DNA from: a virus | Length of the DNA stretch: 64,000 nucleotides | Strand: one strand, 5' to 3' | IMG/VR virus record: IMGVR_UViG_3300047491_001507 | Shown here: one piece after another, positions 16,140-19,888 of the stretch | Layout of the letters: each line of letters opens with the position of its first letter | Numbering within the stretch: the stretch's first letter is position 1 | Notes under the pieces: generated by a model | Database searches by the model: none | What the model saw: only the letters and a program-made list of their open reading frames with translations | Told to the model about the DNA's origin: nothing | Program-made: the position numbers and the translations under genes

Positions 16140-17297
16140 ATGCTTAAAAAATGGCAAATCACAGCACTGGAAAAAATTCCTGGCTGGATTGATTTTGTTG
16201 AAGAATTATCATCTTCTGCTGAAAATAAAAAACTATTACTTGAAATGGCAAGGAATGGAGAGCCAAGACCAAGTTGTAAATTAAATAAATTAGGGGGATG
16301 TTTAGTTGAATACACAAATAAAAATAAAGGTTCTTACGATCCAGAATTTGACAAACAAATTCGGAAGTTAAGGCCAGATTGGTTTACAAATACTGCCGAT
16401 AAAAATAAAGAACAACTTTTGGAGATGGCGAGGAATGGAAAACCAAGACCAAGTTTTAAAACAAAATTGTATGGGCGTTTGTTTGGTTATGTAAATAAAA
16501 ATAATGGTTCTTACGATCCAGAATTTGACAAACAAATTCGGAAGTTAAGACCAGATTGGCTTGAGAATACTGCTGATAAAAATAAAGAACAACTTTTGGA
16601 GATGGCAAGAAATGGAAAACCAAGACCAAACAAACCCAATAAGTTAGGTGTAGTTTTATGTAGTTATACAAATAAAAATAGTGGCTCCTACGATCCAGAA
16701 TTTACTGCCAAGATCAGAGAGTTAAGGCTAGATTGGTTTGTTAGTAAATCAGATATTGCTGATGAAAAGAAAGAACGACTTTTGGAGATGGCAAGGAATG
16801 GAGAACCAAGACCAAACAAACACAATAAGTTAGGTGTAGCTTTATGCAGTTATACTACTAGCGGTCAAAGCGCATACGATTCAGAGTTTGATATTAAAGT
16901 CAGAAATTTAAGACCGGATTGGTTTGCGAATACCGCCAATGAGAATAAAGAACTGCTTTTGGAGAGGGCTGCAAAAGGAGAATCAAGACCTTCTCAATGT
17001 ACAAAATTAGGTGCATGCTTGTGTAATTATGTTAATAAAAATAATAATTGTTATGATCTAGAATTTGATGTTAAAATCAGAAAACTAAGATTAGATTGGT
17101 TTGTTAGCCAATCAGATATTGTTAAAGAAAAGAAAGAACGACTTTTGAAGATGGCAAGGAATGGAGAATCAAAACCAAATTGGAAGACAAAATTAGGCTT
17201 GGTTTTGGGTAAATACACAAATAAAAAAAGTAACACTTACGATCCAGAATTCGACACTAAAATCAGAAAGTTGGCTCCACATTGGTTTAGGAAGTAA
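16140..17297 (+). CDS. repeat protein R1 (8 x 47-aa LLEMAR-GEPRP repeats, HA-domain-like)
   Basis: N-terminus MLKKWQITALEKIPGWIDF followed by the repeats; 385 aa. Confidence 0.6.
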   Translation: MLKKWQITALEKIPGWIDFVEELSSSAENKKLLLEMARNGEPRPSCKLNKLGGCLVEYTNKNKGSYDPEFDKQIRKLRPDWFTNTADKNKEQLLEMARNGKPRPSFKTKLYGRLFGYVNKNNGSYDPEFDKQIRKLRPDWLENTADKNKEQLLEMARNGKPRPNKPNKLGVVLCSYTNKNSGSYDPEFTAKIRELRLDWFVSKSDIADEKKERLLEMARNGEPRPNKHNKLGVALCSYTTSGQSAYDSEFDIKVRNLRPDWFANTANENKELLLERAAKGESRPSQCTKLGACLCNYVNKNNNCYDLEFDVKIRKLRLDWFVSQSDIVKEKKERLLKMARNGESKPNWKTKLGLVLGKYTNKKSNTYDPEFDTKIRKLAPHWFRK

Positions 17298-17298
17298 C

Positions 17299-17428
17299 AT
17301 GCTTAAAAAATGGCAAATTACAGCACTTAAACCGAGCGTTTTGTAAATACATCAATAAAGGAATGTGTTTTAGTCCAGAATTCACTAAACAAATTAAAAC
17401 TTTGAGACCTGACTGGTTTAGGAAGTAA
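17299..17428 (+). pseudogene. internally deleted remnant of a repeat-protein gene (N-terminal 10 codons fused near a C-terminal repeat end)
   Basis: atgcttaaaaaatggcaaattacagcactt... runs into an early stop; a ...SPEFTKQIKTLRPDWFRK* tail is present in another frame. Confidence 0.5.
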
Positions 17429-17429
17429 G

Positions 17430-18386
17430 ATGCTTAAAACATGGCAAATCACAGCATTGGAGAATATCCCTGATTGGTTCGAATTTTCCGAAACCTCTAC
17501 CGACAAAAGAAACCTGTTGCTCAGAATGGCTCAAAATGGAGAACCAAGACCTGATAATGATTCAAAACTAGGTAAAACACTCCAAAACTATCTGAAAAAA
17601 ACAGGAGGATGCTATAGCCCAGAGTTTGATGCCAAAATCAAATCCGTAAGACCGGATTGGTTTGAAAGCACTGCTACGAAAAAGAAAAAACAATTGCTCG
17701 AAATGGCTAGAAGAGGAGATCCTAAACCCTCACAAAAAACCAAAATAGGCAATGCCATGACTTCCTATATTTATAAAGATCAAGCAGGATACGATCCTGA
17801 ATTTGATCAGCAAATTAGGAGATTGGCTCCACATTGGTTTACGAATACAGCCACTGAAAATAAAAAACTCTTACTCGAAATGGCTAAAAGAGGCGAGCCT
17901 AAACCTACTTGTAAAACTAAGTTAGGCCAAGCTTTAACCACTTATATGTGTTCTAAAAAACAAACATACGATCCAGATTTCTGTAGAGAAATCAAAAATT
18001 TGACACCAGATTGGTTCGTAGACATGCCTGCTGAGAACAAAAAACTCCTGCTCGAAATGGCAAGAAGAGGAGATCCCAGACCAGTACAGAAACGGTCCAA
18101 GATAGGACGACTGCTGTGCAATTATGTCAATAAGGGAAATAGTTATGATGCTGATTTCAGTAGGCAAATCAGAGAACTAAGGCCGGATTGGTTTGTAAAT
18201 TCTGCTGATGAAAACAAAAAACTCTTGCTGGAAATGGCCCGAAATGGCGAAGCAAAACCAAACAAAAGATTAGGTGTGGTTTTATGTAATTATACAAATA
18301 AAAAAAATACTTGTTATGATTCAGAATTCGACACTGAAATCAAAAAACTAAGGCCAGATTGGTTCAGAAAGGGACCGCATGCTTAA
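17430..18386 (+). CDS. repeat protein R2 (6-7 repeats)
   Basis: MLKTWQITALENIPDWFEF... then repeats; 318 aa. Confidence 0.6.
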   Translation: MLKTWQITALENIPDWFEFSETSTDKRNLLLRMAQNGEPRPDNDSKLGKTLQNYLKKTGGCYSPEFDAKIKSVRPDWFESTATKKKKQLLEMARRGDPKPSQKTKIGNAMTSYIYKDQAGYDPEFDQQIRRLAPHWFTNTATENKKLLLEMAKRGEPKPTCKTKLGQALTTYMCSKKQTYDPDFCREIKNLTPDWFVDMPAENKKLLLEMARRGDPRPVQKRSKIGRLLCNYVNKGNSYDADFSRQIRELRPDWFVNSADENKKLLLEMARNGEAKPNKRLGVVLCNYTNKKNTCYDSEFDTEIKKLRPDWFRKGPHA

Positions 18387-19344
18387 AAAGTGGCAACTCA
18401 AAGCACTAGAAAAAATGACCGGTTGGCTTGAATTTGCTAACGAAGAATCGTCTTCAGCTATAAACAAAAAACTCCTACTCGAAATGGCAAAAAGAGGAGA
18501 GCCCAGACCTTCTAAAAGAAGCGATAAGTTAGGATTGGCTTTGTGCAATTATACCAATCCAAACCATGAATGCTATGATTTGGAATTTGATAGACAAATC
18601 AGAGATTTAAGGGAGAATTGGTTTATAGATGTAGTAGCAGAAAACAAAAAGCTCTTGCTGGAAATGGCTAAAAGAGGAGAATCTAGACCTTCTCAAAAAG
18701 TCAAATTAGGGCGAACTTTATGCAACTACACAAATCCGAAAAATGGATGTTACGATCCAGAATTTGACAAACAAATCAGGAAGTTGGCTCCACATTGGTT
18801 CGTAGATACGGCTGAGGAAAATAAGAGACTTCTGCTGGAAATGGCTAAAAGAGGAGAGCCCAGACCAAGCAAAAGAGGAAACAAATTAGGAGAAGCATTG
18901 GTTTCTTATACCAATATCAAACAAAAATGCTATGATCCTGAATTTGACAAACAAATCAGGAAGTTAGCTTCACATTGGTTTGTAGATACGGCTGAGGAAA
19001 ACAAAAAGCTCTTGCTGGAAATGGCAAGAAGAGGAGATCCCAGACCAAATGCTAAAACTAAATTAGGACAAGCATTAATAAACTACACCAACAACAGAAG
19101 TTATGATCCTGAATTTGACAAACAAATCAGGAAGTTAGCTCCACATTGGTTTGTAGATACGGCTGAGGAAAACAAAAAGCTCTTATTGGAAATGGCAAGA
19201 AGAGGAGAGCCCAGACCAAAACAAAGAGAGTCTAAGATAGGATTGGCATTATGCAACTATACCAATCCAAAAACAGGCAGTTACGATCCAGAATTTGACA
19301 AACAAATCAGAAAATTGGCTCCACATTGGTTCAGAAAGGCATAG
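18379..19344 (+). CDS. repeat protein R3 (about 7 repeats; the most regular copies)
   Basis: MLKKWQLKALEKMTGWLEF...; 8-nt overlap with the R2 stop. Confidence 0.6.
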   Translation: MLKKWQLKALEKMTGWLEFANEESSSAINKKLLLEMAKRGEPRPSKRSDKLGLALCNYTNPNHECYDLEFDRQIRDLRENWFIDVVAENKKLLLEMAKRGESRPSQKVKLGRTLCNYTNPKNGCYDPEFDKQIRKLAPHWFVDTAEENKRLLLEMAKRGEPRPSKRGNKLGEALVSYTNIKQKCYDPEFDKQIRKLASHWFVDTAEENKKLLLEMARRGDPRPNAKTKLGQALINYTNNRSYDPEFDKQIRKLAPHWFVDTAEENKKLLLEMARRGEPRPKQRESKIGLALCNYTNPKTGSYDPEFDKQIRKLAPHWFRKA

Positions 19345-19345
19345 T

Positions 19346-19888
19346 ATGTCTAAAAAAGACACAGCTTTTGAAAACAAAAAGCTCCTGCTTGAAATGGTCA
19401 AAGCAGGAAAACCAAGGCCCGTCGCTAAGTCCAAATTGGGTATTGCTTTAACAAATTATACAAAAAAAGGATGTCGTGATTTAACCTTTAATATAGCAAT
19501 CAGGAGATTAGCTCCGCATTGGTTTGTGGATACAGCCACCGAAAACAAAAAGCTCCTGCTAGAAATGGCTAAAAAAGGAGAGCCTAGACCAAAACAAAAA
19601 GAATCCAAGGTGGGATTGGCATTATGCAGCTATACCAATCCAAAATGTGGCAGTTATGATCCAGAATTCGATGAAGAAATTAGGAATCTAGCTCCGCATT
19701 GGTTTGTAAACACAGCCGCTGAAAACAAAAAGCTCCTGCTCGAAATGGCCAAGAGAGGAGAACCAAGGCCAAAATTTAAAGTCAAATTAGGGCAAGCATT
19801 GGTAAATTACACCAGTCCTAGAAATGGATGTTACGATCCAGAGTTTCGCAAAGAAATCAAAAAAGTTTCTGATTGGCTAAAAAGCTAA
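19346..19888 (+). CDS. repeat protein R4 (about 4 repeats, lacks the MLKKWQ N-terminal module)
   Basis: Start set at ATG 19346 (MSKKDTAFENKKLLLEMVKAG), immediately after the R3 stop. Confidence 0.5.
   Translation: MSKKDTAFENKKLLLEMVKAGKPRPVAKSKLGIALTNYTKKGCRDLTFNIAIRRLAPHWFVDTATENKKLLLEMAKKGEPRPKQKESKVGLALCSYTNPKCGSYDPEFDEEIRNLAPHWFVNTAAENKKLLLEMAKRGEPRPKFKVKLGQALVNYTSPRNGCYDPEFRKEIKKVSDWLKS

Follow-up and report, generated by a model that had tools for sequence, protein, structure and literature searches.

A three-part module of a putative large phage: a predicted methyltransferase-fold protein, a helicase, and tandem proteins built from probable HA-like repeats

We analyzed a 64,000-nucleotide stretch of viral DNA (IMG/VR record IMGVR_UViG_3300047491_001507; referred to here as the window) that contains four paralogous, repeat-built genes, R1 to R4. 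As an earlier note on this sequence had described, the four open reading frames (ORFs) are co-oriented and tightly packed within positions 16140 to 19888; all genes of this block lie on the plus strand. R1 (16140 to 17297; 385 amino acids [aa]; isoelectric point [pI], 9.6) consists of an N-terminal helix module and six repeats. R2 (17430 to 18386; 318 aa) and R3 (18379 to 19344; 321 aa; the protein used for modeling) carry the same type of module and five repeats each, and the R2 stop and the R3 start overlap by 8 nucleotides (nt). R4 (19346 to 19888; 180 aa; P0088) has three repeats and no N-terminal module and begins MSKKDTAFENKK; the ORF list extends it to a TTG at 19295, and the database gene call begins at the ATG at 19346. 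Between R1 and R2 lies a 130-bp remnant of a fifth R gene (17299 to 17428). The gene preceding R1 encodes protein X (210 aa; P0219), placed at 15502 to 16134 by the database gene call (in the mechanical ORF list, its start is a TTG at 15349). The array precedes, as the note had also stated, a gene for a superfamily 2 (SF2) DExH/ResIII helicase (19905 to 21824; 639 aa) that was identified by Pfam ResIII, DEAD, and Helicase_C and by PHROG 16 (DNA helicase) and that has weak XPB/Rad25 matches among PDB sequences. The helicase ends in a C-terminal tail, EEWSKKIAEAQKIGLKNLKPGDPLRHFMLRQKRIYNKMMKG (21699 to 21821), which we propose below to form helices 1 and 2 of a split HA-like unit (HA, helicase-associated domain).

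A profile hidden Markov model (HMM) of the repeat, run over the six frames of the window, found 19 full repeats (6, 5, 5, and 3 in R1 to R4; E values of 1e-20 to 1e-29) and one partial repeat at 17321 to 17425 (E = 4e-13), with no further repeat outside the array. The earlier count of about 24 repeats of 47 aa, with 3 to 8 per gene, needs correction: each gene holds 3 to 6 repeats, and the unit is 55 to 62 aa long (mode, 59), with Tandem Repeats Finder periods of 177 to 180 nt. The consensus string given with the 47-aa period itself counts 54 residues. The N-terminal module common to R1, R2, and R3 was found as described and reads MLK(K/T)WQ(I/L)xALE. Searches of R1 to R4 against Pfam, PHROGs, NCBIfam, and PADLOC gave nothing beyond scattered subthreshold matches. 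We discarded those to Ribosomal_S13_N, DUF2683, and similar families as meaningless sums of weak matches over the repeats.

The fifth copy is indeed a deletion remnant, a gene start fused out of frame to a partial repeat. It retains the R1-like first 10 codons (29 nt, 97% identical) and a repeat end. These codons are joined out of frame to repeat positions 21 to 56 (17321 to 17425; the last 36 positions), and the remnant is a pseudogene because the shift in reading frame leaves an intact ORF of only 15 codons (17299 to 17346). Its 3' half has at most 72% identity to any extant repeat. Recombination between repeats, to which the deletion had been ascribed, does not account for this structure: because its junction leads from the N-terminal module into the middle of a repeat and changes the reading frame there, a crossover from one repeat to another is not what produced it.

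An AlphaFold2 model of R3 (25 five-repeat homologues in the alignment) had a predicted local distance difference test (pLDDT) score of 91.8. The predicted repeat fold has three helices of about 14, 10, and 10 residues and a short terminal turn. When the whole model was compared with the PDB by Foldseek, only meaningless global matches to all-alpha proteins were returned. The conserved signature of the repeat is LLEMA..GE.RP...LG..L..YT......YDPEF...IR.LAP.WF, and the near-invariant residues are L6, L7, M9, A10, G13, P17, L23, G24, L27, Y30, Y38, D39, F42, I46, P51, W53, and F54. We calculated per-position entropy both for the 19 repeats of the window and for 609 repeats from 120 homologous proteins. 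In the larger set, core positions stayed below 1 bit, and entropy peaked at 3.3 to 3.8 bits at positions 18, 19, 25, 28, 29, 32, and 36. Positions 25, 28, 29, and 32 are spaced i, i+3, i+4, and i+7 and thus form one face of helix 2; positions 18, 19, and 36 lie in the loops flanking this helix. The linker and the exposed faces of helices 1 and 3 varied moderately. The earlier description of an almost invariant scaffold with a concentrated hypervariable surface is therefore borne out by the 609 repeats, but the two contiguous patches placed after RP and YTN are not: the entropy plot shows seven maxima, distributed over the helix 2 face and both of its loops.

The composition of this surface is distinctive. 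The seven hypervariable positions are rich in N, S, Q, H, K, and R, and aspartate and glutamate together make up 4% of their residues, versus 26% at the other variable positions. Acidic residues are nearly absent across repeat positions 15 to 38, and the R proteins as a whole are basic (pI 9.5 to 9.8).

Relatives of the repeat were numerous: a word-indexed search yielded 195 proteins and a profile search 1,293 cluster representatives (E ≤ 0.001), many of them on contigs of 100 to 640 kb. Among 185,579 species genomes there were 5 loci only, all in metagenome-assembled genomes (MAGs), one of which (L018) has the X-R-R-R-helicase arrangement again. Across the relatives, a protein holds 2 to 13 repeats. 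An N-terminal extension of more than 300 aa was present in 28 of 218 repeat-bearing proteins. All but one of these long relatives (27/28) have a DExH box ahead of 4 to 10 repeats, and 20 match an HMM of the window-type helicase at E ≤ 1e-3 (19 at E ≤ 1e-17). One such case, P0124, is a near relative of the window helicase (HMM E = 6e-256) that continues straight into eight repeats. In a different fusion, P0216 (351 aa), a GIY-YIG group I intron endonuclease domain (TIGR01453; E = 3e-24) is followed by four repeats. Two further relatives, P0172 and P0110, have other N-terminal modules with a W..W.DFLG motif before the repeats. Separately, ORFs of 64 to 106 aa at three loci in Planctomycetota MAGs (L020, 7146 to 7337; L021, 7866 to 8183; L022, 7854 to 8159) encode a lone C-terminal repeat half, ..YT.P.HP.YD..FD.QIRALRPDWF.

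The genes for X, an SF2 helicase, and repeat proteins were co-located at 13 distinct loci. The order was X-helicase-R at six of them, X-R-helicase at four (the window, L007, L013, and L018), and X followed by a helicase-R fusion at one; the remaining two, L011 and L012, lack a gene with the 59-aa repeat, and L012 has another repeat type. The outcome of the viral contig scan depended on the helicase query, since the single protein found nothing and an alignment-based scan found nine loci. The association of the array with the helicase, which the earlier note had drawn from adjacency, is therefore stronger than that note could know, with both conserved synteny and fusion proteins behind it. The repeat family, the module, and the split architecture treated below appear to be undescribed in the literature and databases searched.

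The note had also suggested a relationship between the repeat and the HA domain (PF03457). The two have several features in common. Both are three-helix units of about 60 aa, occur in tandem at the C terminus of, or beside, SF2 helicases, and have a similar motif spacing of helix, G-x-x-x-P, L-G, helix, and aromatic end. HA is presumed to bind DNA, and true Pfam HA pieces lie N-terminal to the repeats in some relatives (P0086, 35.7 bits; P0054, 31.6 bits; P0027, 29.3 bits). Moreover, locus L012 (IMGVR_UViG_3300035698_022762; 5010 to 8162) encodes an orthologous X and a helicase fused to about six 75-aa repeats of the other type, whose profile has 2kta as its top hit among PDB sequences (E = 0.007). 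These L012 repeats escape detection by Pfam HA, and hhalign between them and the repeats studied here was negative. The repeats differ from HA in their conserved signature, and they are not picked up by the Pfam model, hhalign, or HMMER. Here the repeats mostly form separate polypeptides encoded by up to four paralogous genes per array, in large phages, and a dedicated partner with a methyltransferase fold accompanies them. What survives of the suggested relationship is the presence of HA pieces in relatives and of HA-like repeats in the same position at L012; what does not is detection by PF03457 or hhalign. The repeat is probably an HA-like helicase-associated unit, a very divergent relative and not a demonstrable member of PF03457. 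HA itself is exemplified by a domain of Bacteroides vulgatus BVU_0683 (PDB 2KTA), the tandem HA of Streptomyces TtrA, and some TniQ proteins. It has been treated as a putative DNA-binding or targeting domain (10.1101/2024.11.13.623437; PMC11406308), a role for which Mills 2013 is the source cited in PMC12191111.

The resemblance to HA extends to the junction between the helicase and the R proteins. R1, R2, and R3 begin MLKKWQITALEKIPGW, a sequence that can be aligned to LskeqIrkLEklpgW, the final helix of the HA pieces found in relatives; the match is too short for significance alone. The helicase tail, W..KIEE..KIG..N...G.PL..F....R, is conserved in the window, L001, L005, and L007. It occurs where R starts with helix 3 only and is missing in L002, whose R proteins carry a longer HA piece. 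Unedited concatenations of the tail with the R N terminus from L005, L009, and L007 gave Pfam HA matches across the junction (E = 0.017, 0.062, and 0.14, respectively), and a spliced tail/R chimera from the window gave E = 0.03; no Pfam HA match was obtained with the helicase tails alone or the R halves alone. That this one family out of 24,736 should recur across the junctions by chance seems unlikely. Because of these concatenation matches and the complementary presence and absence of the tail, we suggest that the tail and the N terminus of R1 to R3 together resemble one split HA domain. An ancestral helicase-HA-repeat protein may have been split inside its HA unit. The two parts may still associate, in which case R1, R2, and R3 could dock on the helicase in turn.

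The third component of the module, protein X, had no match among Pfam models or PDB sequences, and its fold assignment therefore rests on the predicted structure, which was confidently that of a class I S-adenosylmethionine (SAM)-dependent methyltransferase. With such a fold, the name given to X by the Joint Genome Institute (JGI), "alpha-L-fucosidase," is doubtful and probably wrong. We had considered the C-terminal domain of a fusion protein, P0138, as X-like; this candidate was dropped, as neither BLASTP nor the X-family HMM supports it.

The reading that we favor, with a probability of roughly 0.55, is that R1 to R4 are accessory subunits of the helicase, made of divergent HA-like three-helix repeats, that bind nucleic acid, most likely DNA. 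Nucleic acid binding is suggested by the basic pI, the acid-free variable surface, and the fusion to a GIY-YIG endonuclease. Carried on the conserved hydrophobic core of each repeat, the binding surface would comprise the loop after the invariant proline, the face of helix 2, and the following loop, all acid free, basic, and polar. Because the surface residues differ from repeat to repeat, an array of three to six repeats would grip or read a long section of nucleic acid, with preferences that differ between arrays. Many relatives have these repeats as the C-terminal portion of the helicase itself; in this phage, the two would have been split. With the helicase ending in HA-like helices 1 and 2 and with R1, R2, and R3 each starting with helix 3, each R protein would dock by completing the unit at the helicase tail, so that a single motor would have a choice of several binding subunits. 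R4, being without helix 3, and the remnant would be by-products of gene birth and death. If the invariably adjacent X acts as its SAM-methyltransferase fold implies, the module may serve to place a modification on DNA or RNA.

Several observations weigh against this reading. Pfam HA (gathering score, 28.4 bits) had no match on R1 to R4 at E ≤ 1 or on the 19 single repeats at E ≤ 10; hhalign between the repeat profile and the HA pieces of relatives returned a probability of 0.5%, and the same profile found nothing significant among PDB sequences, 2kta included. All HA matches spanning the tail/R junction score 13 to 16 bits, below the gathering score, and when an HMM was made from the N-terminal HA pieces, it scored only 6.4 bits on the N terminus of R1 and found nothing in the helicase tail. 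The predicted template modeling (pTM) score of the R3 model was 0.50, meaning that the arrangement between repeats is not predicted. High variability of the surface could also reflect weak constraint. DNA is distinguished from RNA as the ligand by the endonuclease fusion (P0216) alone, and X has no obvious glycine-rich SAM loop.

One alternative goes further and takes the R proteins to be programmable readers, each repeat recognizing a defined short DNA or RNA element by means of its hypervariable residues and the paralogues directing the helicase and the methyltransferase to different sequences in the manner of type I restriction-modification specificity subunits. The arrangement of seven acid-depleted hypervariable positions on one helix face and its adjacent loops would suit such readers, as would the varying number of repeats per protein, the attachment of repeats to a homing endonuclease catalytic domain, and the presence of a ResIII motor and a methyltransferase-fold protein in the same module. 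In addition, between phages whose helicases are 62 to 67% identical, identity is 13 to 15% at the hypervariable positions versus 56 to 62% in the scaffold. However, the unpredicted geometry between repeats bears on this proposal too, the hypervariability could serve nonspecific or shape-directed binding equally well, and neither a nuclease nor an HsdS-like domain was found. We consider programmable reading unlikely. Slightly less likely still is its fullest form, in which the repeats are a new class of programmable DNA-reading units, each reading a short sequence element with its seven hypervariable residues, and the R proteins swap onto the helicase through the split HA unit, aiming the helicase and methyltransferase at several sequences.

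Known systems offer comparisons for such readers. C2H2 zinc-finger, TALE, PUF, and PPR proteins are arrays of small helical units in tandem, with an invariant scaffold and a variable number of units. The R repeats are like them in having a few hypervariable positions, spaced along one helix face, on a fixed scaffold. They differ in the longer unit (59 aa) and in showing no sequence relationship or confident fold relationship to these families, of which, to our knowledge, helicase association is not a feature. The type I restriction-modification complex consists of HsdS, HsdM, and HsdR. The module resembles it in combining a ResIII-type SF2 motor, a SAM-methyltransferase-fold protein, and separate variable proteins, sometimes as several paralogues, that might provide specificity. 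Unlike that complex, it has in X a minimal 210-aa methyltransferase fold without detectable similarity to HsdM, and it lies in a phage genome context; searches with Pfam, NCBIfam, and PADLOC revealed no HsdS-type target recognition domain or nuclease domain in R1 to R4 or the helicase. As for GIY-YIG homing endonucleases, the repeats of P0216 occupy the place of the DNA-binding modules of these enzymes. The window proteins, in contrast, lack a nuclease domain, the repeat has no sequence relationship to the modules already known, and a Pfam scan of the window proteins gave no match to NUMOD or IENR.

A second alternative holds that the arrays are protein-binding decoys or anti-defense factors whose variable surfaces follow host proteins through an arms race, and that their link to the helicase is merely historical. 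The complete replacement of hypervariable residues between related phages would fit an arms race, and so would the gain and loss of paralogues (one to four genes per locus, with remnants in several loci). HA-bearing helicases have also been reported in acr-aca operons (PMC13551039). We nevertheless regard decoys as quite improbable. The variable surface excludes acids and favors K, R, N, S, Q, and H, a composition expected for contact with nucleic acid, and the repeats are found again and again at the C-terminal end of helicases and also in a GIY-YIG endonuclease. PADLOC gave no match, and the identity of arrays across independent samples leaves no sign of fast diversification within a lineage.

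The history of the array bears on the last alternative. Synonymous sites between repeats are saturated (proportion of synonymous differences [pS] of about 0.7) in scaffold and variable columns alike, and the ratio of nonsynonymous to synonymous substitution rates (dN/dS) is about 0.1 in the scaffold and about 0.5 in the variable columns. Nucleotide identity between repeats reaches 82% at most. By this measure of divergence, the repeats are old. Repeat scaffolds are about as alike within the window (identity, 0.63) as between phages, so strong homogenization by gene conversion is absent, and no one-to-one orthologous repeats could be recognized between phages when we looked for them. A Logan contig present in three samples was 100% identical to window positions 16577 to 18778, remnant included, and in two other phage lineages, arrays from three or four samples agreed at 99.98 to 100% identity. 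Related phages do vary in how many R genes they have (1 to 4), in how many repeats each gene holds (2 to 8), and in the presence of small remnants. ORFs of one or two repeats stand beside intact R genes in L001 (9641 to 9928), L002 (10887 to 11111), L007 (5218 to 5475), and L009 (14611 to 14796), and decayed copies like that in the window are therefore common. Since independent assemblies are identical even though related phages differ in numbers, the turnover of the array, judged from these assemblies, is evolutionary and not ongoing; the note's "actively expanding and contracting" array did not hold up. Nor does the array contain a near-identical pair of template and variable repeats, and a diversity-generating mechanism with ongoing, template-driven diversification is not indicated by the sequence. 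A recombination-prone locus that is expanding or contracting at present, or dedicated diversification, for instance by a diversity-generating retroelement, is thus very improbable: the deletion remnant, the small remnant ORFs of other loci, and the differing gene and repeat numbers would fit it, but the saturated synonymous sites, the 82% ceiling on repeat pair identity, a scaffold no more alike within the window than between phages, the identical arrays of three lineages, and the 72% ceiling for the remnant's 3' half speak against it.

The module is part of a co-oriented block with recognizable borders. The first gene of the block is a 708-aa ORF (13226 to 15352, plus strand) whose family is unassigned; it had no match in Pfam, PHROGs, NCBIfam, PADLOC, or PDB sequences and does not lie beside the module in L001, L002, L005, or L007. 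Ahead of it is a promoter-like site, TTGACA-16-TAGAAT (13147 to 13174, plus strand), identified by an 11/12 consensus match only. Directly after the helicase gene is a terminator-like hairpin (21835 to 21873, plus strand) with a 13-bp G+C-rich stem, a CCTT loop, and a T8 tail; we read it straight from the sequence, as the scan for terminator-like elements did not list it. A second promoter-like site, TTGACA-17-TAGAAT (21890 to 21918, plus strand), lies 3' of the hairpin, and together the two mark the end of the X-R-helicase block.

As a whole, the window appears to be a segment of a large phage genome. With 33 to 41% G+C, it is AT rich, and its genes include those for a family A DNA polymerase, a RecA/UvsX-like protein, a DnaB-like ATPase, glycosyltransferases, and one tRNA, the last being a tRNA-Tyr (GTA) gene at 26598 to 26683 (plus strand). 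A 306,208-bp JGI contig on record has the same proteins. The 12 kb around the array gave no megablast match against 50,697 phage records. The window also encodes a second ResIII/DEAD helicase (474 aa; 39361 to 40785, minus strand), unrelated to the one beside the array, and a 901-aa protein (30642 to 33347, plus strand) with the shoulder domain of the major vault protein (Pfam MVP_shoulder, PF11978; E = 1e-19), which is unusual for a phage-like contig.

HA domains are common beside bacterial helicases, in defense islands, and in the target selectors of transposons, and their function is barely known. Our analysis defines an unannotated three-part module of large phages, composed of a methyltransferase-fold protein, an SF2 helicase, and repeat proteins. 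The repeat family provides a clean natural experiment, with a rigid scaffold, a sharply delimited variable surface, and well over a thousand cluster representatives. Its three forms (fused to the helicase, split from it, and attached to a homing endonuclease) make an HA-like binding role directly testable. If the split unit does dock the R proteins, it would be a natural case of protein fragment complementation used for exchanging targeting subunits. Should a preference for particular sequences be encoded in the variable residues, the repeats could serve as a new designable scaffold for DNA binding.

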